Sequence record: OZ336095.1
Direction: 5' to 3' (one strand)
Source: a phage
DNA: 64,000 nt
Made by a program: the position numbers and the translations under genes. Under the pieces are notes generated by a model. The model was not told the origin of the DNA. It did no database searches and saw nothing but the letters and a program-made list of their open reading frames with translations. Positions 38,523-58,244 of this stretch are shown here, piece by piece (positions within the stretch are counted from its first letter, which is position 1; every line of letters starts with the position of its first letter).

Positions 38523-39308
38523 ATGGGTATTGTAAAAATCATCAAAGGTGATATCTTTGACGCATTTGATAAAGGTAAGTTTGACATCATTGGTCACGGT
38601 TGCAACTGTATGAACTTCATGGGTGCAGGTATTGCAGCAACTATTTCCAAGCGTTATCCAAAAGTGTATGATACTGACACAGAAGTTTACCTGTTTGCAG
38701 GTGGCATTCGTCACAAACCCTGTGAAAATTTACTAGGTAATTTCTCTGTAGCACGTTTAAAACAAGGCCGTATAGCTAACCTTTACACCCAACTTCATAC
38801 TGGTAAAGATGCCCGATACAGTGCTTTAGAGTCATCTTTGAAACAGCTTAACAGATACTGTGAAGTTAACCAGTTGAAGAAAGTTGGTCTACCTATGATT
38901 GGTGCAGGTATCGGTGGGCTTGACCCTCAAGCTGTCACAGTTATCATTAATCAGGTGATGAAGAGTGTAGATGTTTATCTGTATGTCTATGAAGCAAAAA
39001 TGTATAATGAGTTACACTCAGGTTGGAAAAACTACTGTGAACCAGAATACTTTGCAGGTGTAGTTGTGTTCACAGATAACGAAGTTACCCTCTTCAGACG
39101 AAGAAAAGGTAAGATACATCAAAGTAACCCTCCGGTTGAAAAGATGTCTCTGAGTAACGCTCTAGTTACCCACCTGTCGAAGAGCAATCACAGGATTGCA
39201 GTAACATTTGGCAGTGATGCAGATACTTATATCTATGCAAGAACTGATGAGGATATCGAGACAGTTTTCTCTTCACCAGAAGTTACCTTCTTAGACGCAA
39301 AGAACTAA
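38523..39308 (+). CDS. Macro domain protein (ADP-ribose binding/processing) with C-terminal extension
   Basis: IKGDIFDAFDKGKFDIIGHGCNCMNFMGAGIAATI and GLPMIGAGIGGL resemble macro-domain Gly-rich diphosphate-binding loops. Confidence 0.55.
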   Translation: MGIVKIIKGDIFDAFDKGKFDIIGHGCNCMNFMGAGIAATISKRYPKVYDTDTEVYLFAGGIRHKPCENLLGNFSVARLKQGRIANLYTQLHTGKDARYSALESSLKQLNRYCEVNQLKKVGLPMIGAGIGGLDPQAVTVIINQVMKSVDVYLYVYEAKMYNELHSGWKNYCEPEYFAGVVVFTDNEVTLFRRRKGKIHQSNPPVEKMSLSNALVTHLSKSNHRIAVTFGSDADTYIYARTDEDIETVFSSPEVTFLDAKN

Positions 39309-39374
39309 GAAACTCTGTAGAATATTCACAATAGACCAAGCCTTTCTTATCTGGTAAATTTTTCAGGTAAGGAG

Positions 39375-39560
39375 GGCTTTTTCATTTCAGAATTGTGCAG
39401 GTAGATTTCTATAGAGAAACCTGTAGAGAAAATATTGAACTCCAAAGAGAAAATTCATTTTCAAACTGTGCAGATAATCTCCAAAGAGCTTTTTCATTTT
39501 CAAAACGTGCAGACCCCGCTCAGGTCGGGCAAGGAAAATCATTTTAGATTTGTGCAGGTA
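39375..39560. repeat. Degenerate tandem repeats (four units with core cattttcaaa.ygtgcag) followed by a polypyrimidine tract
   Basis: Units at about 39378, 39451, 39488, 39535; ccctctccccctcttactccccctctcccc at 39585..39615. Confidence 0.6.
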
Positions 39561-39737
39561 GGTTTTTATAGAGAGCCAGACCAACCCCTCTCCCCCTCTT
39601 ACTCCCCCTCTCCCCAAAAGTCAAGAGAAAAATTTGTAGCGGATTGAAAAATAATTCTTGATTTGTGTTCTGTTTTGTGGTAGTCGTGTGCGCCCGTTTC
39701 ATTACAGTTTTGCCAAAAATATTTTTAAAATTTTTTC

Positions 39738-39766
39738 TTGACTCTTTGAACGTGGTTATCTAGTAT
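39738..39766 (+). promoter_or_regulatory. Strong sigma70-like promoter at entry to small-ORF region
   Basis: TTGACT, 17 nt spacer, TAGTAT. Confidence 0.6.
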
Positions 39767-39774
39767 TTGCATCA

Positions 39775-39829
39775 ACGGGGAGGGAATGACCTTCCCCACT
39801 AAATAAAGTCCTAAACTGGAGATTCAAAA
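39775..39829 (+). repeat. Cassette type 1 (hairpin ggggagggaatgaccttcccc + actaaataaagtcctaaactggagattc + ATG)
   Basis: One of six near-identical copies preceding small ORFs. Confidence 0.7.
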
Positions 39830-40213
39830 ATGGCATATCGTGCACCTAAATTCATCAACAAAGACAACTTTCGCAACGCACTGGAGAAGTCACTTGATGA
39901 GAATTTTAAAGGTAACATTATCGTTGTTCACGCATTCAATTTTAAGTATGATGTAAACGGGAATAGAATCAACCATTACACGGCAACCATGTTAGATGGT
40001 ACACTTTCAAGTGAAAAAGCCGTACTAAATGCACTGGCAGGACGTGGAAAGGTATTAGTAAGATGTGATAAGAGACGTTATCAGGGCGGCGCATATGGTT
40101 ATGATGATGCTGTTTACCATCTTGAAAATATGGGCTATCAAGTAGAAAAAGCTGGAGCATCACAAATCATCGGCAGCGATGGTTATGTAACTATCTTCAA
40201 AATTAACAAATAA
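39830..40213 (+). CDS. Hypothetical small protein (cassette ORF), 127 aa
   Basis: ATG directly after cassette RBS GGAG; ends KINK inside next cassette. Confidence 0.5.
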   Translation: MAYRAPKFINKDNFRNALEKSLDENFKGNIIVVHAFNFKYDVNGNRINHYTATMLDGTLSSEKAVLNALAGRGKVLVRCDKRRYQGGAYGYDDAVYHLENMGYQVEKAGASQIIGSDGYVTIFKINK

Positions 40214-40299
40214 AGTACTTTACAAGGGGCTTATAGTTCGATAAAGTAAGCCCCAGATAAAGAGCTTTACCACTAAATCCTAAATTGGAGAACTTAAAA
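40214..40299 (+). repeat. Cassette type 2 (agtactttaca + hairpin ggggcttat...ataagcccc + agataaagagctttaccac.aatcctaaa.tggaga + ATG)
   Basis: One of seven copies; hairpin arms covary between copies. Confidence 0.7.
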
Positions 40300-40593
40300 A
40301 TGGCTATTATCAAAAACGTTGTAATTACTGCAAAGACTCGTGATGACGCTCGCGTTATGGCTAAAAAGTTATGCGGGAAAGTGGTTGACAATGGAAAACA
40401 ATCCGCTGTAAGGTGGGGCGTGAAGGTTGATAAACAGTTGAAGTTAAAAAATTCACCGATAAACCTTTTTACATGTGTAAACACTATCGGGAAGACAAAT
40501 GTATACACGAAAAAGGCATACATTAGGCGCGTAGCATTAACATCCCCCATTCGTACAATGAGAAGTTATGCAAAGCTGAAAATTAACAAATAA
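40300..40593 (+). CDS. Hypothetical small basic protein (cassette ORF), 97 aa
   Basis: ATG at 40300 after cassette (track start 40285 lies in cassette). Confidence 0.45.
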   Translation: MAIIKNVVITAKTRDDARVMAKKLCGKVVDNGKQSAVRWGVKVDKQLKLKNSPINLFTCVNTIGKTNVYTKKAYIRRVALTSPIRTMRSYAKLKINK

Positions 40594-40678
40594 AGTACTT
40601 TACAGGGGGCTTAAAAGTTGATATCTTAAGCCCCAGATAAAGAGCTTTACCACTCAATCCTAAACTGGAGATTCTAAA
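40594..40678 (+). repeat. Cassette type 2 copy
   Basis: Hairpin variant gggggcttaa...ttaagcccc. Confidence 0.7.
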
Positions 40679-41191
40679 ATGAAAACTGTAGACGCTACCT
40701 TTGAAGTTGTAAAAGAAAAATTTTCCATCATCTACGAAGCGGTAAATTGCTACGAAGCAAGCCATAATCTCGATAATTGGGAGTTTACAAACGACCATCA
40801 AGGCGGTGTGACTGTTAAAAATCCTAACTGTCAGCATAATGATTTTAAATATGCAATCCCTTTGCATTACAGCCTTAAACAGCTTTCAAGTGACTATGCA
40901 AAACAAGGCCGGGAAAATCCATCAAAAGAGGCTTACGCAAGCTTACAAAAAGAACTAGAAAGAGATTTAGAGGCTTCAGAGTACAGCCTTGCCGCGAAAG
41001 TTGTGGATGCAAACGGTAACACGGTTTTAGAAAGTTTTTATCTTGGTTATGCTTTCGATTGGTGCTATCGTGACGGCGATGATTTAGAGGATAGACTAAA
41101 AGAAGAGGTGAACAATTCAGACGCAGAAACTGAAGTATTAGAACGTTTGGAATCGTTGAAAGATTCAGTGATGAATATCTTTAAGAACTAA
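40679..41191 (+). CDS. Hypothetical protein (cassette ORF), 170 aa
   Basis: ORF track; cassette upstream. Confidence 0.5.
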   Translation: MKTVDATFEVVKEKFSIIYEAVNCYEASHNLDNWEFTNDHQGGVTVKNPNCQHNDFKYAIPLHYSLKQLSSDYAKQGRENPSKEAYASLQKELERDLEASEYSLAAKVVDANGNTVLESFYLGYAFDWCYRDGDDLEDRLKEEVNNSDAETEVLERLESLKDSVMNIFKN

Positions 41192-41283
41192 ATAGATTTC
41201 TTTACACGGGGTTATCAAGCTGGTAGGATAGCCCCAGATAAAGAGATTTATCAAATAAAGCCCTTAAACTAGGAGATTCTAAA
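41192..41283 (+). repeat. Cassette type 2, diverged copy
   Basis: Hairpin ggggttatc...gatagcccc with compensatory changes. Confidence 0.6.
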
Positions 41284-41580
41284 ATGAAATTATCAAATCA
41301 AGTGCGTGAAAATCTGAGCAAATTACTCAACAAAATTGATTTCATTGAAACATCAAGGAATAGCCATGATGTTATGGAATGGTTACACGGCAAAATAAAA
41401 GGTCGTCGTGTAGTGATTTGCTTATGGAACAGTTGCAGGGAGTATAAAAAACCTGTATTACAAGTCAATATCTATGATGATACTTTTAAAAGTCCAGTAA
41501 AGTCTAAAAGCGATTTATTAGAATCTTATGAGATATCTGTAAATGGCAAAGTATCACGTAATGAGGTAACACCATGTTAA
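41284..41580 (+). CDS. Hypothetical protein (cassette ORF), 98 aa
   Basis: ORF track. Confidence 0.5.
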   Translation: MKLSNQVRENLSKLLNKIDFIETSRNSHDVMEWLHGKIKGRRVVICLWNSCREYKKPVLQVNIYDDTFKSPVKSKSDLLESYEISVNGKVSRNEVTPC

Positions 41581-41906
41581 TGACTGGTATCACTGCAATC
41601 ATTGCCATTTTCGCGCTATATAAGGCATATAAAGCCTATAATCTAGCAAATAAGGCAATCACACAGCAGGTTAGTAATAACCTTGTAGAAAGCTTTCTAG
41701 GGCGCCTCAGTGATGAGCAAATAAAGCGGCTAGAGATGAGCTTCAGATATAAAGCGAAAACCTATCAGATAAGTGACATCTTTAAAGATGATTTTCAGTT
41801 AGTTGATGATTATAATTCTCTGATAAATGCTTTAAACGTCAGTGACTTGAAAGACTATCACGCTGTAATTGTTCAAGAATTGAGCAAACGAAAACAAAAC
41901 TGTTGA
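41574..41906 (+). CDS. Hypothetical protein with N-terminal transmembrane helix, 110 aa
   Basis: MLMTGITAIIAIFALYKAY; start overlaps previous stop. Confidence 0.45.
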   Translation: MLMTGITAIIAIFALYKAYKAYNLANKAITQQVSNNLVESFLGRLSDEQIKRLEMSFRYKAKTYQISDIFKDDFQLVDDYNSLINALNVSDLKDYHAVIVQELSKRKQNC

Positions 41907-41935
41907 CACTGGTTTTCAGATAGATTAAATTACAC
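41907..41935 (+). promoter_or_regulatory. Sigma70-like promoter candidate
   Basis: TTGACA, 17 nt spacer, TAAATT; near-identical copy at 43521. Confidence 0.45.
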
Positions 41936-41939
41936 ACCA

Positions 41940-41994
41940 ACGGGGAGGGAATGACCTTCCCCACTAAATAAAGTCCTAAACTGGAGATTCAAAA
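41940..41994 (+). repeat. Cassette type 1 copy
   Basis: Same hairpin and leader as 39775..39829. Confidence 0.7.
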
Positions 41995-42153
41995 ATGTTT
42001 TTTGCAGGTGATAAAGTTGTCTGGAATGATATAGATGACGGTTTATGTACGAAAGTTGTTGTTATCTTAGAAATTGATTATATCACTGGTGTTGCAACTG
42101 TAGCAGATAATGATATAATCTTTGATGTCTTAATTAGTGAACTGTCAAAATAA
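41995..42153 (+). CDS. Hypothetical small protein, 52 aa (below ORF-track cutoff)
   Basis: ATG directly after cassette; MFFAGDKVVWNDIDDG...VADNDIIFDVLISELSK. Confidence 0.35.
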   Translation: MFFAGDKVVWNDIDDGLCTKVVVILEIDYITGVATVADNDIIFDVLISELSK

Positions 42154-42178
42154 AATCCTTAAACTAGGAGCTTTTAAA

Positions 42179-42451
42179 ATGTACACTACTAACAACGGTC
42201 GCACTTTAAACGTAACCCTTCGTCACTATGTGAACGGTGTAATGCACTTCGAGGATTTACAAGCCGAACAACATATCTTAGATTGGCAACTAGCAGGACT
42301 CCAAAAAACTGCTACCGGATACGGCAAAAAGATTCCAACTAGCTGGAAAGTACACTATGAAGGACGTTTGCGCAGAATTTACCAAGATGTATGCAGCAAT
42401 AGCGCATCTAGTTACATCATAGTAAAAGGTAAAAAGCTGCATTTAGTATAA
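42179..42451 (+). CDS. Hypothetical small protein, copy 1 (90 aa)
   Basis: ATG after AGGAG RBS (track start 42137 is GTG); MYTTNNGRTLNVTLRHYVNG... Confidence 0.45.
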   Translation: MYTTNNGRTLNVTLRHYVNGVMHFEDLQAEQHILDWQLAGLQKTATGYGKKIPTSWKVHYEGRLRRIYQDVCSNSASSYIIVKGKKLHLV

Positions 42452-42536
42452 AGTACTTTACAGGGGGCTTATAAGTCTGTACAGTAAGCTCCCGATAAAG
42501 AATTTTATCACTCAATCCTAAATTGGAGACTCTAAA
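42452..42536 (+). repeat. Cassette type 2 copy
   Basis: Identical to copy at 43027..43111. Confidence 0.7.
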
Positions 42537-42692
42537 ATGGCTATTAATAATCGTGAACTGGCTGTATTAAAAGCACGTTTGACCGTCAACCGCATCAACG
42601 TTATTACATCAGCAGCACCGGACGAAACATTACACACTGTAGCAGATAATGATATAATCTTTGATGTCTTAATTAGTGAACTGTCAAAATAA
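42537..42692 (+). CDS. Chimeric small ORF created at duplication junction (51 aa)
   Basis: N-terminus equals start of 43112 ORF (MAINNRELAVLKARL...), C-terminus equals end of 41995 ORF (...VADNDIIFDVLISELSK); in frame across junction at 42635/42636. Confidence 0.3.
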   Translation: MAINNRELAVLKARLTVNRINVITSAAPDETLHTVADNDIIFDVLISELSK

Positions 42693-42717
42693 AATCCTTA
42701 AACTAGGAGCTTTTAAA

Positions 42718-43026
42718 ATGTACACTACTAACAACGGTCGCACTTTAAACGTAACCCTTCGTCACTATGTGAACGGCACTTTAAACGTAACCCTTCGTCA
42801 CTATGTGAACGGTGTAATGCACTTCGAGGATTTACAAGCCGAACAACATATCTTAGATTGGCAACTAGCAGGACTCCAAAAAACTGCTACCGGATACGGC
42901 AAAAAGATTCCAACTAGCTGGAAAGTACACTATGAAGGACGTTTGCGCAGAATTTACCAAGATGTATGCAGCAATAGCGCATCTAGTTACATCATAGTAA
43001 AAGGTAAAAAGCTGCATTTAGTATAA
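42718..43026 (+). CDS. Hypothetical small protein, copy 2 with 12-aa internal duplication (102 aa)
   Basis: Same as 42179..42451 plus duplicated TLNVTLRHYVNG. Confidence 0.45.
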   Translation: MYTTNNGRTLNVTLRHYVNGTLNVTLRHYVNGVMHFEDLQAEQHILDWQLAGLQKTATGYGKKIPTSWKVHYEGRLRRIYQDVCSNSASSYIIVKGKKLHLV

Positions 43027-43111
43027 AGTACTTTACAGGGGGCTTATAAGTCTGTACAGTAAGCTCCCGATAAAGAATTTTATCACTCAATCCTAAATTG
43101 GAGACTCTAAA
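43027..43111 (+). repeat. Cassette type 2 copy
   Basis: As above. Confidence 0.7.
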
Positions 43112-43516
43112 ATGGCTATTAATAATCGTGAACTGGCTGTATTAAAAGCACGTTTGACCGTCAACCGCATCAACGTTATTACATCAGCAGCACCGGACGA
43201 AACATTACACAACATTATCGGGAAGATTCAAGGCGTTATCTTAGACGTTGAAAATGTAAAAAACTCATTAGCCGACGTTGCAGCAGGTATCACACTAGAT
43301 GGCGCACAATATGAAATGTCCGACATGTTAGGTAAATCAAAGGTAATGAATAAAGAGATTGATTTAAAAATGTTTAGATTTGCCGTGAAAGTGTGGCTAT
43401 CTGTTGAGTATGACGCTAATTTTGCAATCGCTGATTTCTTTGCCACATGGTTGCAACGTAATTTGGCGAGTCATGACTTCCGTGACATCTGCGATGCAAT
43501 TTACGCAGAACTCTAA
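43112..43516 (+). CDS. Hypothetical protein (cassette ORF), 134 aa
   Basis: ORF track. Confidence 0.5.
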   Translation: MAINNRELAVLKARLTVNRINVITSAAPDETLHNIIGKIQGVILDVENVKNSLADVAAGITLDGAQYEMSDMLGKSKVMNKEIDLKMFRFAVKVWLSVEYDANFAIADFFATWLQRNLASHDFRDICDAIYAEL

Positions 43517-43520
43517 AAAT

Positions 43521-43549
43521 TTTATTGACACTGATTTTTAGATAGATTA
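43521..43549 (+). promoter_or_regulatory. Sigma70-like promoter candidate
   Basis: TTGACA, 17 nt spacer, TAAATT. Confidence 0.45.
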
Positions 43550-43561
43550 AATTACTCATCA

Positions 43562-43617
43562 ACGGGGAGGGAATAACCTTCCCACTAAGTAAAGTCCTTA
43601 AACTAGGAGATTCAAAA
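43562..43617 (+). repeat. Cassette type 1 copy
   Basis: Slightly diverged hairpin. Confidence 0.65.
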
Positions 43618-43866
43618 ATGATGAATTTTTTAAATATCCCTGATACTTGCCGACTGTTGACGCAACCAGAAAATTTAGGCAAACCTTTCCTGTACCATAT
43701 GCCAGACAATACACCAAAAACATATAGCTACACGGTTAACCGCTTTACGGGTTACGCTGCAAAAAACGGTTACAAGGTTACTACTCAAAAAGTAACACTA
43801 TTTACAAATATCGAAGAGCTTCCAACAATCGCTGTAAAACTAATATTTACGAAGAAGACGCAATAA
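43618..43866 (+). CDS. Hypothetical protein (cassette ORF), 82 aa
   Basis: ORF track. Confidence 0.45.
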   Translation: MMNFLNIPDTCRLLTQPENLGKPFLYHMPDNTPKTYSYTVNRFTGYAAKNGYKVTTQKVTLFTNIEELPTIAVKLIFTKKTQ

Positions 43867-43951
43867 AGTACTTTACAGGGGGCTTAAAAGTTGATATCTT
43901 AAGCCCCAGATAAAGAGCTTTACCACTAAATCCTAAACTGGAGATTCTAAA
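43867..43951 (+). repeat. Cassette type 2 copy
   Basis: As above. Confidence 0.7.
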
Positions 43952-44155
43952 ATGACTATTATTAACGGCGTATCTATCGAGACTGTACATATCAAAGACA
44001 TTAAAGTTGGTGATGTAGTCCTTTCCCACGGCGTAGAGAAAACTGTCACTGCAAAGGATATCAAAGATGATTCTTTCATGGGTAGAACTCTCTTCGGTGA
44101 TTCTTATTGCTTAGGTTATCTTGCAGTTTTAAAAGTTGTAAAAAATAACAAATAA
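43952..44155 (+). CDS. Hypothetical protein (cassette ORF), 67 aa
   Basis: ORF track. Confidence 0.45.
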   Translation: MTIINGVSIETVHIKDIKVGDVVLSHGVEKTVTAKDIKDDSFMGRTLFGDSYCLGYLAVLKVVKNNK

Positions 44156-44240
44156 AGTACTTTACAAGGGGCTTATAGTTCGATAAAGTAAGCCCCAGAT
44201 AAAGAGCTTTACCAATCAATCCTAAACTGGAGATTCTAAA
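44156..44240 (+). repeat. Cassette type 2 copy
   Basis: As above. Confidence 0.7.
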
Positions 44241-44783
44241 ATGAAATGTTTTCACGGTACTACTCAAGAAAATTTCCTCAACCTGATTAATAACGGTAAC
44301 AAGCCATCAGGTGCATGGAATTGTTCGGATATGGACGGCAATTTTTACGTGTATCCAGAAAATAAAATCTATGGCGACGATGAGGAAGAGATAACATCGG
44401 AGGGCATTCAGCAAGCTCTAGGCAATGCCACTATCACCGCAGCTTTTCAGATGAAGACTCAAAATATTGTTATCTTAGAACTCGATATTCCAGAGGATGA
44501 GCTAAATGATGATTATTCTTGTGATAATATGTCTGGCGTAGCAAGTTTTACAGAATACTTCGATTTAAATTGGATTAAAAAGGTTTACGTAACCGAGTTT
44601 AATGCGATGTTTTCACCTTTTTGTCTTCCTTCACTGGATAACCCAAATATGAACTATCTTGATGAGACATTAGAACTACTTGCTAAAAGTGTTCAACAAT
44701 CGGACAGTATTCAGGTTTTTTGTGACATCATGGATACACTGACAGAAAACATCGCAGAAGAGGATTTAAAGAGCTTTTTCTAA
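44241..44783 (+). CDS. Hypothetical acidic protein (cassette ORF), 180 aa
   Basis: ORF track. Confidence 0.5.
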   Translation: MKCFHGTTQENFLNLINNGNKPSGAWNCSDMDGNFYVYPENKIYGDDEEEITSEGIQQALGNATITAAFQMKTQNIVILELDIPEDELNDDYSCDNMSGVASFTEYFDLNWIKKVYVTEFNAMFSPFCLPSLDNPNMNYLDETLELLAKSVQQSDSIQVFCDIMDTLTENIAEEDLKSFF

Positions 44784-44848
44784 AACCTATACAATCACCT
44801 TATAAACACTGATTAGCCCCTCACAGGGGCTTTTAGAGGGCTTAAATC

Positions 44849-45082
44849 ATGCTTACAACCGTTTATCTCATCCTTTCTATTTGTAATGGCCATTCATGTG
44901 ACTTTAAAGGGCTTGAGGAGTTTACAGGGAGTAAAGAAAATGCTGTTCAAGTGTGCCAGATAGCAAGGCAAGACTACCCCGCCAGTGATGATATACAATG
45001 TTACTTTAAGACAGAAGATGAAGACGGTATCTATTTTGACAGCGTAGATGGTCAGTATGAAATTATCATTGAAAAAGACTAG
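44849..45082 (+). CDS. Hypothetical protein, 77 aa
   Basis: ORF track. Confidence 0.45.
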   Translation: MLTTVYLILSICNGHSCDFKGLEEFTGSKENAVQVCQIARQDYPASDDIQCYFKTEDEDGIYFDSVDGQYEIIIEKD

Positions 45083-45116
45083 ACAAGCCTGATAAAAATC
45101 TGTAAATTGTCAATAA

Positions 45117-45172
45117 ACGGGGAGGGAATGACCTTCCCCACTAAATAAAGTCCTAAACTGGAGATTCTAAAA
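45117..45172 (+). repeat. Cassette type 1 copy
   Basis: As above. Confidence 0.7.
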
Positions 45173-45514
45173 ATGGCTTATGTAACTGTAATTACCAATA
45201 AAGAAAATTCATCTTGGTCAACTCAAGTCAGTGATAAGATGTCACCTATGCAGTGCCTAAAATACTTTGAGCAGTGGAACAAAGGCGAGGGTGTCAGCCC
45301 CTTTCAAGTGATGCAAATCATCCATACGGATAACGAAGGGAACAAAACGACACTTAATAGCGAATATTACGCAAATCGTTTTGAGAGTCGAGTTGAAACG
45401 ATGAAGGGGCTACGTGAGGCCGGATATGGGCACATTGCCGCCCTGTTATGGGATAACCTACTAAAAAACCAACGTATCAGCTATGTAAAACCTGAAAAAA
45501 TATTCATCAGTTAA
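45173..45514 (+). CDS. Hypothetical protein (cassette ORF), 113 aa
   Basis: ORF track. Confidence 0.5.
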   Translation: MAYVTVITNKENSSWSTQVSDKMSPMQCLKYFEQWNKGEGVSPFQVMQIIHTDNEGNKTTLNSEYYANRFESRVETMKGLREAGYGHIAALLWDNLLKNQRISYVKPEKIFIS

Positions 45515-45711
45515 TCAATAACTTACAAAAAACTTTTAAAAAAGTGTTGACAATACCCATTGACATTGGTAACTTTGTTCGAGGGGGTTATCTAAAAGGG
45601 ATTCACTTAACAGATTCTTTATATATAAACTTAAAAATTGCTTGCAATCACTTTCTAAAAGCCCTATAGTATCTATCAAGCAAAACAACTTCCTAAACTG
45701 GAGAAATCAAG

Positions 45712-46239
45712 ATGAATAAGTTCACAGCAATCAATACTATTCGCTCAAAAGACGTAATGAAAAAGCCTGTCAAGGATACTTTCGAATTTACCCTGAAAGA
45801 TAAAACTTTTGCAGTTATCACGAAAGGGGAAGATAAGAAATATTACATACATCGCCCAAATCAGCAAATGATAACAGCTAACAGCTTTATGAAGGCCGTA
45901 GCGGTTATCCTGCCGGATTATATGGCTATCGTCGCAGAAATTCACGAAATGGCTATCAAGGCGACTAAAAACGAGCTAAACCAATACAAAATGGCTTATG
46001 AACGCTCTATAAAGTCTCATAACCTTTTTATTGCAATTTTCTACACTGGCGTGTCTGCTACTGGTACAGGCAATCAACAACACCCAATCTATGAAGTTGA
46101 AAAACTGTTTACAAGTGAATACAAAACAGATATTTTTAAAGTAACGTTAGGCAAGGCATTAACAGACTTAATCAAGCTTTACGAAAAATCTTTAAAAAAT
46201 TTAGAAAATGCACTTGACGAAACGTTATCAAATCTTTAA
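45712..46239 (+). CDS. Hypothetical protein, 175 aa
   Basis: ORF track; GGAG RBS. Confidence 0.5.
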   Translation: MNKFTAINTIRSKDVMKKPVKDTFEFTLKDKTFAVITKGEDKKYYIHRPNQQMITANSFMKAVAVILPDYMAIVAEIHEMAIKATKNELNQYKMAYERSIKSHNLFIAIFYTGVSATGTGNQQHPIYEVEKLFTSEYKTDIFKVTLGKALTDLIKLYEKSLKNLENALDETLSNL

Positions 46240-46250
46240 AGTATCTATCA

Positions 46251-46305
46251 AGGGGAAGAAATCACTTCCCCACTAAATAAAGTCCTTAAACTAGGGGTTA
46301 TCAAG
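46251..46305 (+). repeat. Cassette type 1 copy (diverged)
   Basis: ggggaagaaatcacttcccc hairpin plus conserved leader. Confidence 0.6.
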
Positions 46306-46569
46306 ATGGAAAACGTAGAATTAACCACACTATTGCAGATTGCAACTGACAAAGAAGATGTAGCACTGTTTCACCGTATCGAAAGCGATTTATTCAATGG
46401 TGAAATCATCAAAGAATCTTACGAAGTTGTCGGATTCAAAGATGGTAAAGCATTTGGATTCTTTGACCTCGACAAAGGCAACGCTGTTACAAAGTACGAT
46501 GTTTTGTCTTGTGAGATTCTTACAAAATACAACGAAAAAAGGCTTGCAACATACGCCAATATGCAGTAA
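46306..46569 (+). CDS. Hypothetical protein (cassette ORF), 87 aa
   Basis: ORF track. Confidence 0.45.
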   Translation: MENVELTTLLQIATDKEDVALFHRIESDLFNGEIIKESYEVVGFKDGKAFGFFDLDKGNAVTKYDVLSCEILTKYNEKRLATYANMQ

Positions 46570-46580
46570 ATTACTAATTA

Positions 46581-46633
46581 ACGGGGGATGACCTCCCCCA
46601 CTAAGTAAAGTCCTAAACTGGAGAATCTAAATT
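46581..46633 (+). repeat. Cassette type 1 copy (diverged)
   Basis: gggggatgacctccccc hairpin plus conserved leader. Confidence 0.6.
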
Positions 46634-46882
46634 ATGTCAACTATCCGCGTAACTGTTAATGCTTATGGCTGCCACGAACTTGATGCAAAATTCGATATCG
46701 GTGGAACAAATAACACCTTTGACCTTATCAAAATGCTGATTCAGCAGGTGCTACCAGATTATAACCCTACCGATGACTTTTGGAAGGACGCTGTAAAAGA
46801 AGCCATAAACGAGGAATATCACTACCACTACTGGGGAGAAAAAATTGTCTCCCTGTACTACAACAAGCAAGATTATAACTAA
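46634..46882 (+). CDS. Hypothetical protein (cassette ORF), 82 aa
   Basis: ORF track; last plus-strand gene before the repeat region. Confidence 0.45.
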   Translation: MSTIRVTVNAYGCHELDAKFDIGGTNNTFDLIKMLIQQVLPDYNPTDDFWKDAVKEAINEEYHYHYWGEKIVSLYYNKQDYN

Positions 46883-46920
46883 TCGACGCAGCGGGGCTAT
46901 TTAGCCCCAGATACCTTGAC

Positions 46921-46946
46921 AGCCCCTATTTAAAGGGGCTTTTTTA
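46921..46946 (+). terminator. Rho-independent terminator
   Basis: agcccct...aggggct hairpin followed by TTTTTT; second hairpin ggggctatttagcccc just upstream. Confidence 0.6.
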
Positions 46947-46950
46947 CGTC

Positions 46951-48504
46951 TATCCAATCCTTATACAATCCCTTTCCTTTCCTTTCCAGAATCTTACTAG
47001 ACCTTAAAAGCAATAACTCTATAGTCTACTCTATAACCTCTTATCAAATCAACTTAAATAAAAGCCAATAACCCCAGAAAGGGGATGGCCCATTTAAACG
47101 CTCTATAAAGCTCTATAACATCCTTATCAACCTAACTTAAGGGATTGCATTAACTCACCCTAAAAAGCCCTTTATAAAGCTTCCTAGAGACTTAAAAGAA
47201 TCTTATAAGGGTGTAAGCTTTATCGTCTCGTTAGTATTCTTGTGAATAACTAAACAACCCCTTGATAGTCACTAAAAAGTATGTTATAGGGGCTATAAAG
47301 TAGCTTAAAAGTTGCTTAAAAGTTACGTAAATGCTAGCCCCCTTAACATTTTCTTAACAATTTCTTAACAATCCCTACATAGTTATGCTTGTTAGAGACT
47401 TGTTAGCCCCTTGTTAAATCTCTGTTAAGACCACGTAAAAACCTTGTAAGAGTCTTTGACATAGCCTTAAAAGCTCCTGTAAAGCCCTATAAAGAGCTAT
47501 CCATACAGTTGAGGGGTAGATACTAGGAAGAGGCTTAAAAGAACTTATAAGGGGCTATAGAGAGCTTTTAAGAGGCATGTTTAGAGAATCACTAAGAGAG
47601 AAAGGGAACGATAAGAAAAGAGATAGTGACCATGTTAATAGCTTGTTAAAAAGATTAAACACTTGTTAGGAACTTGTTAATTATCCCTACAAAATAACTC
47701 TTTAAAATTAACTTGTTAGCTCTTGTTAGTCATCTGTTAAGATTCTGTAAAGTCTATGTATCAACTGTTAAGAAACTGTTACATCCCTGTTAGTTCTGTT
47801 AAGAGTCTATTAAGACCTTTGAAGAGTTGTTAAGAGCTTGAGAGAGTTGTTAAGAGATTGTTAAGGATATTTTAAAATTTTGCAAAGTACTTGTAAGGGA
47901 GTTGTTAAGGGTTACCAAGCAGATATACATCCTCAACAGATATTTTTGAGTTCCTTCAAAGACCCTAAAAAATGACTTGATAGCCCTATTTTATAAAAAT
48001 TTTAAAATTCTGAATAATTACCTAGACAGTCTTTTAAAAATACAGGCATAAACAGGCTTATAAGATACCTTGTTAGTACCGTGTTAGACCTTGTGAGATA
48101 AGGTCTGTAAAGATATTCCTGTTAAGTTTGTTAAAACAGTCTATATAGAGGCTTAGTAGCTCCTAGTGAACACCTATAGAGGGTATCATAGCTGACATAG
48201 AGATTAAGAGGTGTATAGGAGCTTCTAAGAGGGTGTAGAGAGATGGTTAAGGTGATTGTATAGGTTGTTAAGAAGGCTTGTTAGAGGGCTTGTTAGAAGG
48301 GTTATACAGAGGGGCTATTAAGACCACTAGATAGTTACTAAGACACTATATAGTACTATATAACTATATAGAGAGTAAGATTAAGAAGGTTGTTAAGAAG
48401 GATAGATATTTTATTCACATATGATGGTGACCCAGAGGTTGGGACAACCGATAAAATTTTATAAAAATTAAAAAGCCCCCGATTAAGGAGGCTCTTAAGA
48501 TATT
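46951..48504. repeat. 1.6 kb ORF-free region dense in short repeats
   Basis: No ORF of 60 aa or more on either strand; more than 25 copies of YTGTTAAG/YTGTTAG (some as CTTAACAA) and many CTTAAAAG/CTATAAAG/CTTATAAG units. Confidence 0.85.
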
Positions 48505-56828: not shown

Positions 56829-58244
56829 ATGAGCGAATTATTTAAACATGCGCACCTTCATGCAGGTCGAACTGAAAATGGTGCTGTAAACCATACTTCA
56901 TCAATGTCTGCTCTTGTAGACTTTTACAAAGCTGCTGGTTCAAGCCGTAGCAACGTAGAAATCTTACCAGACCTGTTCTACAAAGCTTTGCGTGAGGATG
57001 TTGATGTTGCAGTTCGTATTTTGCTTCATATGCGAGATGTACGAGAAGGCATGGGTGAGCGTAAAGCCTTCAGAACTGTTTTACTTCAAGCGATTGAAGA
57101 TAAGGTTTTAGAACCTACACAGGTTCTTCGCATTATGGATAAGATTGCAGAGCTTGGTCGTTTTGATGACTTCAAAATCTTCGTAGGTACTCGTTTCGAG
57201 ACAGATGCCTTCAAACATTTAGAAGCAGCATTACTAGACCCTGCAACAGCAGGTTTGGCAGCCAAGTGGCTACCACGAGTCAAACCACGTCATAAGCAGT
57301 TTGTAAAACGTTTCTGCAAGTTTGCCAACTTGAGTGAGAAAGAGTACCGCACACTGTTGTCTGCACTATCTGATACAGTTGAGCAAAAAATCTCTGCTAA
57401 TGAGTTTGGTAAGATTGACTACAGTAAGATTCCTTCACTTGCTGCTGCACGTTACCAAAACCTGTTTAACCGTAAAGATGGAGAGCGTTACAAAGCTTAC
57501 ATCGAGTCCTTATCAAAAGGTGAGACTAAGATTAACGCTGGTGCTGTTTACCCATACGATGTGATTAAATCTATTAAGTATGGTAATGCAGATGTTGCTA
57601 ATGAGCAGTGGAAAGCACTACCAAACTGGATGGCAGAAGGTGAAAACATCTTGTGCATGACTGATGTCTCAAGCTCAATGTCTTGGGTGAATCTTGGTTC
57701 AATCACTGCTCTTGATATTGGTGTATCACTTGCATTGTATGTTGCAGAACGTAATACAGGTTGCTTTAAGAATGAGTTGATGGTTTATTCAACAAACCCT
57801 CACTTCATCGAACTGAGTGGTGATTTACGAAACCGTCATCGTCAGGTGATGCGACACGTTGAATATGGCTCAACTAACTTACAAGCAGCTTTTGACCGTA
57901 TTCTTGAGACAGGTAAAAGAAACAACTTGACTCAGAAAGATATGCCAAGTAAGCTTATCATTTTCTCCGATATGGAGTTTAATCAGGTTGATGGTGCTAA
58001 TGGCCGTACAAACTTCGAAGCAATTCGAGATAAGTACGAAAAAGCTGGATATGAGATGCCACAACTGGTATTCTGGTACTTAGCAAACCGTAATGGTACT
58101 TGCGAAGTGTCTGTTAAGGATAACGGTGTAGCAATGGTATCAGGCTTCTCTCCAGCTACTTTAAAAGCTCTGCTTGGTGGTGAGAAGTTTGACCCAATCA
58201 GCGTAATGCTCAAAGCAGTAATGATTGACCGTTATATCTGGTAA
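56829..58244 (+). CDS. von Willebrand factor A (vWA) domain protein with helical N-terminal region; possibly TROVE/Ro60-like
   Basis: MIDAS-like DVSSSMS motif after a roughly 270-aa helical region; C-terminal LIIFSDMEFN; gene ends about 170 bp before the tRNA cluster. Confidence 0.45.
   Translation: MSELFKHAHLHAGRTENGAVNHTSSMSALVDFYKAAGSSRSNVEILPDLFYKALREDVDVAVRILLHMRDVREGMGERKAFRTVLLQAIEDKVLEPTQVLRIMDKIAELGRFDDFKIFVGTRFETDAFKHLEAALLDPATAGLAAKWLPRVKPRHKQFVKRFCKFANLSEKEYRTLLSALSDTVEQKISANEFGKIDYSKIPSLAAARYQNLFNRKDGERYKAYIESLSKGETKINAGAVYPYDVIKSIKYGNADVANEQWKALPNWMAEGENILCMTDVSSSMSWVNLGSITALDIGVSLALYVAERNTGCFKNELMVYSTNPHFIELSGDLRNRHRQVMRHVEYGSTNLQAAFDRILETGKRNNLTQKDMPSKLIIFSDMEFNQVDGANGRTNFEAIRDKYEKAGYEMPQLVFWYLANRNGTCEVSVKDNGVAMVSGFSPATLKALLGGEKFDPISVMLKAVMIDRYIW

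Follow-up and report, generated by a model that had tools for sequence, protein, structure and literature searches.

Background

In T4-type phages, promoter-early stem-loops (PeSLs) combine an upstream stop codon in AT-rich DNA, -35 and -10 boxes, and a Shine-Dalgarno (SD) sequence with its ATG, and carry a stem-loop, often of the form GGGG...CCCC, which mostly lies between the two boxes or over the -10 box (PMC2839356). They are found in hyperplastic regions of small open reading frames (ORFs), where they bound the insertions and deletions (indels) that separate close relatives (Arbiol et al. 2010, PMC2839356; Comeau et al. 2014, PMC4122927); they show promoter as well as terminator activity and recombine into mini-circles (PMC2839356). 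Here we describe a block of small ORFs at positions 39738-46950 of a 64,000-nucleotide (nt) stretch of phage DNA from sequence record OZ336095.1 (hereafter the window), which an initial annotation had read as an array built from two families of promoter/hairpin cassettes and had likened to PeSLs. The likeness holds feature by feature, and one of the two families, type 2, has the PeSL layout.

Sequence matches of the block and of the replication region identify the window phage as a member of Felixounavirus (Ounavirinae), a Felix O1-like myovirus. Felix O1-type phages are widely used for typing, biocontrol and therapy of Salmonella and Escherichia coli, and their early transcription is undescribed. 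We consider it likely that the block is an early accessory-gene array that the two cassette families cut into one- or two-gene units. Its counterpart, placed by the terminators t13 and t23 of the published map, is Felix O1 genes 14-23 (PMC3185647), which take up 4.4 kb compared with 7.6 kb for the block. The genome paper on Felix O1 (Whichard et al. 2010, PMC3185647) lists 57-bp and 39-bp direct repeats, two copies each, and states that the mode of transcription of the region is not known. These repeats are identical in sequence to the cassettes, the 57-bp repeat being the type 2 core and the 39-bp repeat the type 1 promoter up to the hairpin; the paper is silent on promoter, hairpin, ribosome-binding site and recombination. 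Our literature search returned no later paper interpreting the Felix O1 repeats, no mention in print of a PeSL likeness for Felix O1-type phages, and nothing relevant on Felixounavirus transcriptomics or promoter mapping.

Organization of the block and the shared leader

By our own calls the block holds 18 plus-strand ORFs of 51-180 amino acids (aa) between 39830 and 46882, in agreement with the roughly 18 small, domain-free ORFs annotated initially, apart from the lower size limit of 49 aa given there. No Pfam domain was found in any of the 16 distinct block ORFs, and PHROGs matches were to families of "unknown function" only. A cassette directly precedes 13 of the 18 ORFs, and not every one as had been claimed: type 1 stands before ORFs A, F52, H, K, M and N, and type 2 before ORFs B, C, D, the chimeric F51, F134, G67 and I. 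Each of the 13 cassettes spans the entire gap from stop codon to ATG; E, both G copies, J and L have no full cassette. Within the window both types are confined to this block.

All 13 cassettes carry the SD sequence GGAG 7-9 nt 5' of the ATG, embedded in a conserved leader of about 30 nt. At no more than two mismatches, this leader, TCCTAAACTGGAGA, occurs 11 times in the 64-kb window vs. 0.85 expected by chance, always on the plus strand and always between 39.8 and 46.6 kb. It comes in two forms, CC-TAAACT-GG(AG) and CCT-TAAACT-AGG(AG) (e.g. 39809-39822, 43594-43608), in which the extra T and the extra A always go together (143 copies vs. 0 mixed), and the leaders of Erwinia phages (gene starts of Erwinia phage phiEa104) read CCTT-AYA-AAGG. 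Every form has a pyrimidine run complementary to the SD sequence 3-6 nt 5' of it, and run and SD together suggest a tiny SD-masking hairpin or a protein recognition site. Reading TAAACT of the leader as a -10 box, or GAGCTTTA as a site like the T4 MotA box, was rejected because transcription would then start on or after the SD sequence; that no MotA/AsiA-like gene is known in Felix O1-type phages (PMC3185647) is a further ground against the MotA-box reading.

Type 1 cassettes

All six type 1 copies carry a -35 box, a 17-bp spacer and a -10 box, an arrangement missed in the initial annotation, which had named the entry promoter (TTGACT-17-TAGTAT, located at 39738-39766) and the six hairpins. 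The hairpin sequence recurs unchanged at 39777, 41942 and 45119 and almost unchanged at 43564; at 46252 and 46583 it has diverged but still folds. The window copies, which measure 64-101 nt from stop codon to ATG, all lie on the plus strand. The entry copy (39738-39832) runs from TTGACT (39738) and TAGTAT (39761-39766) through the hairpin at 39777-39797 and the leader to the ATG of ORF A at 39830. The copy at 41903-41997 has TTGACA (41903), TAAATT (41926-41931), a hairpin at 41942-41962 and the ATG of F52 at 41995; that at 43525-43620 has TTGACA (43525), TAAATT, a hairpin at 43564-43583 and the ATG of H at 43618; and that at 45080-45175 has TAGACA (45080), TAAATT, a hairpin at 45119-45139 and the ATG of K at 45173. 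The last two are variants whose -10 boxes lie over stop codons: at 46214-46308, TTGACG (46214, inside L) is followed after 17 bp by TAAAGT over the stop codon of L, a hairpin at 46252-46271 and the ATG of M at 46306, and at 46544-46636, TTGCAA (46544) is followed after 17 bp by TAAATT over the stop codon of M, a hairpin at 46583-46599 and the ATG of N at 46634.

For comparison we assembled 58 distinct type 1 copies from the window, 11 GenBank relatives and IMG/VR contigs. The spacer is exactly 17 bp in 58/58, the -10 box is TAAATT in 52/58, and the hairpin starts 10 nt after the -10 box in 56/58, while the -35 box varies among TTGACA, TTGCAA, TAGACA, TTGATT, TTGACT and TTGACG. Fixed spacing in at least six unrelated -35/spacer backgrounds would be the signature of real promoters, as judged by consensus match. 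All 25 distinct type 1 hairpins fold, with G/C stems of 5-8 bp, and the sense strand is the stabler one (-11.8 vs. -9.8 kcal/mol for the antisense strand).

Type 2 cassettes

The seven type 2 copies had been described as beginning at the previous stop codon, and they do so exactly, at the TAA triplets at 40211, 40591, 41189, 42449, 43024, 43864 and 44153. They measure 85-92 nt from TAA to ATG (7/7 copies) and share one order: stop codon, TTTACA, a hairpin that encloses the promoter spacer and a -10 box TAnnnT, and then the same leader as in type 1. The promoter scan flagged TTTACA-17-TAnnnT in 7/7 copies, which had escaped the initial annotation. Among 100 distinct copies from relatives, TTTACA-16/18-TAnnnT is kept in every one, with 13 different -10 hexamers, and an alignment of 56 sequences shows no variation in CTTTACA or in the TA of the loop-located -10 box, whereas other loop positions vary.

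The first copy (40211-40302, plus strand as are all others) has TTTACA at 40219-40224, a hairpin at 40226-40254 with -10 box TAAAGT, the sequence TAAAGAGCTTTA at 40258-40269, the leader, and the ATG of ORF B at 40300. The second (40591-40681) has TTTACA at 40599, a hairpin at 40606-40634 (-10 box TATCTT), and the leader up to the ATG of ORF C at 40679. The third (41189-41286) belongs to a variant class, with TTTACA at 41201, the hairpin GGGGTTATC...GATAGCCCC at 41208-41235 (-10 box TAGGAT), a 13-bp outer stem, and the leader before the ATG of ORF D at 41284. The fourth (42449-42539) has a hairpin at 42464-42492 (GGGGCTTA.../...TAAGCTCC, one G·U pair, -10 box TACAGT) and the ATG of F51 at 42537, and the fifth (43024-43114) is an identical duplicate of it, with the ATG of F134 at 43112. 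The remaining two lie at 43864-43954 (hairpin 43879-43907, ATG of G67 at 43952) and at 44153-44243 (hairpin 44168-44196, ATG of I at 44241).

Type 2 homology runs about 12 nt into the 3' ends of the unrelated upstream ORFs A, B and G67 (40199-40213, 40579-40593 and 44141-44155). These three share the C-terminal residues ..NK* or ..INK*, as if crossovers sometimes landed just inside coding sequence.

That the hairpin arms covary between copies was borne out statistically: 98% of cells are paired over 22 distinct arm pairs, and none of 500 shuffles matched this. One of the arm pairs quoted in support, ggggcttat/ataagcccc, was misread, the first pair being GGGGCTTA(T)/(G)TAAGCCCC and "ataagcccc" reading GTAAGCCCC. 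Stems were counted on arm-anchored constructs, as a full-cassette MAFFT alignment mis-registers the shorter-loop class. Five of the nine stem pairs show compensatory changes (G-C to U-A, C-G to U-A, U-A to A-U, A-U to U-A, and several types at the ninth pair), and slid-register controls were at most 58% paired. Over 81 variants, 98.6% of cells are paired vs. a shuffle maximum of 91.4%, and 53 cells are G·U and none A·C; the presence of the former and absence of the latter indicate a structure selected on the sense strand, i.e. in the transcript.

Folding of the type 2 cassettes gives z = -3.1 to -4.6 at -24 to -27.5 kcal/mol. The minimum-energy fold of every copy (RNAfold) comprises a 9-bp upper stem, a 3x3 internal loop and an 11-13-bp lower stem, the latter formed by TAAAGnnCTTTA paired with TAAAGAGCTTTA, so that pairing of the flanking TAAAGTACTTTA and TAAAGAGCTTTA yields a bipartite helix of 20-22 bp (RNAfold, RNAalifold). 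Pairing in the lower stem amounts to 90.7%, the mean over shuffles being 89.5%. A single pair of this stem varies: it is broken in 9/56 copies and changes from G-C to U-A in 6-7 distinct copies, which linkage of genes C and D can explain. Erwinia phages (Kolesnikvirus) keep the type 2 layout with GGTG...CACC stems, GGTGTTTAT/ATAAGCACC and GGTGTTTAG/CTAAGCACC, and with the -10 boxes TAGTAT and TAATCT in register. Rfam 15 gave no covariance-model match at E <= 1 on either strand of 39300-47100.

Distribution and plasticity

Type 2 cassettes were found at 1433 places in 288 phage records and type 1 at 1221 places in 251, or some five copies of either type per genome. Their hosts are Felixounavirus and Mooglevirus-like Shigella and Citrobacter phages, and Erwinia phages with type 2 only; BLAST at ~65-70% identity returned no matches beyond Ounavirinae, bar a few records with unexpected organism names. 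As a whole, the 7.3-kb stretch has matches in 252 phage records, nearly all of them from Felix O1-like phages (Felixounavirus and relatives); coverage is at least 80% in just one record and 45-60% in most, at 85-93% identity. The replication-gene block (window 1-24000) is covered to at least 80% in 197/282 records, at ~95% identity.

Maps of 12 genomes are collinear and differ by single genes, with O, A, B, C, F52, H, M, I-J and N each absent somewhere; the region is not invariant, as 8/17 gene families are missing from at least two of the 12 genomes. ORF H changes its slot, following F134 here and G67 in Shigella phage vB_SflM_004, where it stands behind a different cassette type. The nearest relative differs from gene to gene, namely SUT_S820 for A, C and K, finno for B, E and I, and KEP1 and MET-P1-301 for F52, and ORFs I and L exist as deeply divergent alleles. 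The initial description of the region as fast-evolving is overstated: 38 genomes yield 25 families of leader-preceded ORFs, 12 of them common.

Homology breakpoints form 29 clusters. Cassettes, or positions no more than 8 nt from a gene end, account for 22 of them, in a region of which 77% is coding sequence farther in (P ~2e-9); among the other seven clusters, four represent the duplication junctions of the window and the allelic core of L. Several private hairpin variants recur in different slots of one genome (h22 three times in SP2; h20 in REP9, h16 in Felix O1 and h18 in VpaE1 twice each), and REP9 h20 is a compensatory double mutant. Identical hairpins make up 32% of same-genome/different-slot pairs vs. 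13% of different-genome/different-slot pairs. In vB_SflM_004 the C-D junction is a chimeric cassette, in which the common left half and hairpin are joined to a D-type right half; we had considered a cassette-mediated deletion of gene C there and rejected it, as a divergent C is still present beside this converted or chimeric cassette. Taken together, these plasticity results would fit recombination and gene conversion between cassettes, and it is on breakpoints, chimeric cassettes and within-genome homogenization that a role of the cassettes as recombination substrates is proposed.

The window also holds an exact tandem duplication of 539/575 bp (42097-42635 and 42636-43210, plus strand), whose second copy has an extra in-frame 36-nt duplication at ~42776. 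It yields the chimeric 51-aa ORF and gives G and the type 2 cassette a further copy each, so that the type 2 set of seven contains two non-independent members, and the ORF set two or three. None of the 25 phage records matching the junction query spans the junction, and the duplication could be a recent real event or an assembly artefact.

Encoded ORFs and flanking regions

All ORFs and features that follow are on the plus strand. ORF A (39830-40213, 127 aa, PHROG 4495) and ORF B (40300-40593, 97 aa) are of unknown function. ORF C (40679-41191, 170 aa) is Felix O1 ORF16, and F134 (43112-43516, 134 aa) is Felix O1 ORF20, both maximal at 5 min; in the Felix O1 reverse transcription PCR (RT-PCR) series, ORFs 16, 20, 21 and 22 peak at 5 min, and ORFs 14, 17, 19 and 23 at 25 min. 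ORF D (41284-41580, 98 aa) is overlapped by 7 nt by ORF E (41574-41906, 110 aa), which has a hydrophobic N-terminus and whose Bas63 homologue, gp103, scores essential-like. F52 (41995-42153, 52 aa) is followed after only a 25-nt leader by G90 (42179-42451, 90 aa); F51 (42537-42692, 51 aa), the chimeric product of the duplication, is likewise followed by a 25-nt leader only and the second G copy (42718-43026, 102 aa). ORF H (43618-43866, 82 aa) is rare (7/38 loci), and G67 (43952-44155, 67 aa) separates it from ORF I (44241-44783, 180 aa), a homologue of Bas63 gp107 with a conserved N-terminal FHGT and a weak ADP-ribosyltransferase-like fold.

Between I and J lies a terminator-like hairpin that is not a cassette, AGCCCCTCACAGGGGCT followed by TTTT (44815-44834), with ORF J (44849-45082, 77 aa) 3' of it. 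ORF K (45173-45514, 113 aa) is separated from ORF L (45712-46239, 175 aa) by a 197-nt gap (between 45514 and 45712) with TTGACA and TTGCAA-17-TATAGT promoters and a leader only. The central part of L is a divergent allele, and structural matches of an L model (predicted local distance difference test score, pLDDT, 75) were generic coiled coils only. ORF M (46306-46569, 87 aa) is present in 7/12 genomes, and ORF N (46634-46882, 82 aa) closes the array. Bas63 homologues of block ORFs are mostly dispensable, gp107 being conditionally important. This dispensability, the one conditionally important homologue and the fold of ORF I are three weak lines that point towards the host-takeover or anti-defence role proposed initially.

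The left boundary of the block is an intrinsic terminator (39338 to 39379-39389, plus strand, 17-bp stem and T run) that ends the upstream operon and corresponds to t13 of Felix O1 (PMC3185647); the right boundary is a second one (46921 to 46940-46946, plus strand; terminator scan), t23 in Table 2 of the same paper (PMC3185647). From t13 to the first cassette promoter, ~360 nt (39380-39735) are non-coding and 94% identical to Felix O1, and hold two 35-nt direct repeats at 39440-39474 and 39479-39513 (CTCCAAAGAG..CATTTTCAAA.GTGCAGA) and a C/T-rich tract at 39586-39617, with no Rfam match there. The conserved gene directly 5' of the block (38523-39308), a "phosphatase" in relatives, encodes a Macro domain (PF01661, E 5e-7), an ADP-ribose-binding/hydrolase domain that is notable beside the possibly ADP-ribosyltransferase-like ORF I.

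Directly 3' of the stop codon of N and before t23, a degenerate type-2-like hairpin, GGGGCTATTTAGCCCC (46890-46912), is followed by AGATACC and TTGACA and looks like what remains of a cassette where the array ends. Beyond, some 1.55 kb (46950-48500) are without any ORF of at least 36 aa and dense in the short repeats YTTGTTAAGA / TCTTAACAA, in both orientations and often 10-12 nt apart; the linear records of several GenBank relatives start or end near here, and the segment may be a genome terminus, a terminal repeat or an origin-like region. Further along, 26 tRNA genes are clustered on the plus strand (58411-63556), and just 5' of them lies a 471-aa ORF (56829-58244), probably the counterpart of Bas63 gp130, a reported counter-defence protein.

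Proposed mechanism and alternative explanations

Promoter firing, hairpin function, a preference of recombination for cassettes and the functions of the ORFs are what we infer from these features. In a type 1 unit, a host sigma70 promoter would be followed 10 nt downstream by a 6-8-bp G/C hairpin, the leader and the ATG. With transcription predicted to start ~7 nt after the -10 box, ~3 unpaired nt would precede the stem, and the hairpin is most likely a transcript stabilizer; 5'-terminal hairpins that stabilize mRNAs have such a geometry. In a type 2 unit, a weaker promoter (TTTACA, 16-18 bp, TAnnnT) would have its spacer and -10 box inside the covarying 9-bp G/C hairpin. RNA polymerase reading through from the preceding gene would carry the hairpin into the upstream message as its 3' end, where it is probably an attenuator, a 3' stabilizer or a processing site, and the same DNA would restart transcription for the next gene. 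With about ten repeats of 60-100 bp, all oriented alike, the cassettes would offer the phage recombination system patches of homology exactly at gene borders, and whole genes could be deleted, inserted, moved or converted with the expression of their neighbours intact.

A more far-reaching proposal, unlikely in our judgement as a whole, holds type 2 to be dual-coded: the same 30 nt would serve as promoter spacer and -10 box in DNA and as a selected hairpin in RNA (possibly the upper half of a ~21-bp site of the RNase III (ribonuclease III) type), each gene would be restarted and cut loose there, and the family, kept uniform by gene conversion, would be a homology-based site of gene capture, like an integron attC array without integrase.

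Several points weigh against a reading of the block as an array of promoter cassettes that recombine. Our literature search turned up no mapping of transcript starts, of termination or of RNA processing in any Ounavirinae phage. The type 2 promoter matches the consensus at only 9/12 positions, and the last T of its -10 box is also part of the stem, so that its conservation is confounded; type 2 hairpins have no U tract and hence are not canonical terminators. The signal of within-genome homogenization is modest (permutation on mean identity, 95/2000), gene order is collinear over a small gene pool, and selection for intact genes would also leave breakpoints at gene borders. The junction of the tandem duplication lies inside coding sequence, at 1-nt microhomology, and not in a cassette.

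Type 2 may instead be mainly an RNA processing or stabilizing signal and not a promoter, in which case long early mRNAs would start at type 1 promoters, and the ~20-22-bp bipartite hairpins would serve as RNase III cleavage sites or as barriers to 3' exonucleases; the result would be monocistronic mRNAs, each protected by a hairpin at its 3' end. Such a mechanism is possible, if not the explanation that we favour, and can coexist with the promoter-cassette reading. It accounts for the bipartite fold of every type 2 cassette, about two helical turns with both stems predicted by RNAalifold, for the RNA-level selection seen in G·U without A·C, for the missing U tract, and for the change from G-C to U-A in the lower stem. 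A hairpin alone leaves unexplained, however, why CTTTACA and the loop TA are invariant and 16-18 bp apart in 100/100 copies; the lower stem is paired at little more than the shuffle mean, with its variable pair broken in nine copies and its covariation explicable by C-D linkage, and both Erwinia flanks read AAAGAGCTTT, which gives two central mismatches. The sequences of the lower stem could alternatively be DNA sites, the palindromes TAAAGTACTTTA and TAAAGAGCTTTA, 47 bp apart around the hairpin, being bound by a dimeric phage protein (an early repressor or activator, or a recombination helper). Both are AAAGnnCTTT palindromes, a motif present ten times in the window vs. 0.27 expected and only in cassettes, Erwinia phages conserve their half-sites but not the central dinucleotide, and the PeSL authors also speculated on a cassette-recognizing protein (PMC2839356). 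We nevertheless regard such sites as improbable: no candidate DNA-binding protein is at hand, the block ORFs being without Pfam domains, the left palindrome overlaps the stop codon and the -35 box and is thus conserved for other causes, and the variant cassette at 41189 lacks it (TAGATTTCTTTA) yet keeps its pairing with the right partner. Least probable of all is that the hairpins are rho-independent terminators ending the transcript of each gene, even though the stems are G/C-rich and PeSL stem-loops cut read-through in reporter assays (PMC2839356). No T run follows any cassette hairpin, the stems continuing into AGATAAAG or ACTAAATA, and T runs occur only at the boundary terminators (39338, 46921) and the I-J hairpin (44815); among block features the terminator scan picked the two boundary terminators only, its total of 8 being no excess over 6.6 in shuffles, and type 1 hairpins lie 3' of their own promoter, where termination would abort the mRNA of the very gene.

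It is also conceivable, although we find it rather doubtful, that the cassettes are ordinary expression signals whose part in plasticity is incidental, the indels and mosaicism arising anywhere from general homologous and illegitimate recombination and gene-breaking events being removed by selection. Collinearity in 12 genomes except for gene H, the small gene pool, the modest evidence of homogenization, and the duplication junction and the allelic replacement in L, neither of which is at a cassette, are all as this would have it. Against it, homology between genomes usually spans the shared cassette and stops 0-4 nt from the ATG or stop codon, private hairpin variants, a compensatory double mutant included, sit in two or three slots of one genome, vB_SflM_004 carries a chimeric cassette, and cassette recombination has been shown experimentally in T4-type phages (PMC2839356).

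Read as promoter cassettes, these elements provide a map of ~13 predicted promoters and leaders for the accessory block, and would explain why variability peaks in this block when the rest of the genome is 95% conserved. With them, the PeSL idea that a regulatory cassette can double as a recombination linker reaches a second group of virulent phages that is unrelated to the first, and they mark what would be natural, expression-ready insertion sites for engineering. Given the conditional importance of Bas63 gp107, the genes of the block are candidates for host-specific or counter-defence functions. What interests us most is that type 2 can be read twice, once in DNA as a promoter and once in RNA as a hairpin under selection, and that its bipartite helix may be a processing site.

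Comparison with known systems

Apart from PeSLs, three kinds of element invite comparison. Early mRNAs of phage T7 are cut by RNase III at intercistronic hairpins, which resemble type 2 in being irregular, ~20 bp long and interrupted by an internal loop, and in lying among small, non-essential early genes transcribed by host polymerase; unlike type 2, they are not families of repeated sequence and hold no promoter. The 5' untranslated region (UTR) of ompA is a 5'-terminal stem-loop that stabilizes its mRNA, and the type 1 hairpin is like it in beginning ~3 nt from the predicted transcript start. Lambdoid morons are autonomous promoter-gene-terminator units that occur as single insertions without a shared cassette family, and the start-associated sequences of cluster K mycobacteriophages are short, translation-linked motifs before many genes, with no promoter or covarying hairpin; the cassettes are like the former as autonomous units and like the latter as a conserved motif before many genes.

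The closest match is with PeSLs. Sigma70-like boxes, properly spaced by consensus alone, are found in 58/58 distinct type 1 and 100/100 distinct type 2 copies; a G/C stem lies between the -35 and -10 boxes and over the -10 box in type 2, and 10 nt after the -10 box in type 1; and an SD sequence and ATG stand at the 3' end. As with PeSLs, there are several cassette sub-types per genome, clustered among small ORFs of unknown function with variable content and mostly dispensable Bas63 homologues, and indels and replacements between relatives are bounded by cassettes, a correspondence confounded by selection for intact genes. The differences are that the activity and the mini-circles of PeSLs were measured in T4-type phages, the Ounavirinae cassettes being known from sequence alone; that the carrier lineage, with genomes of ~87 kb, is not T4-like and its cassettes show no sequence homology to those of T4-type phages that BLAST at ~65-70% identity would detect; that there are only two well-defined types with one common leader; and that all copies lie in a single block of 5-8 kb, in one orientation and with gene order largely kept. 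Judged by these shared and divergent features, the Ounavirinae cassettes are a PeSL analogue, or a member of that class by architecture and not by descent.

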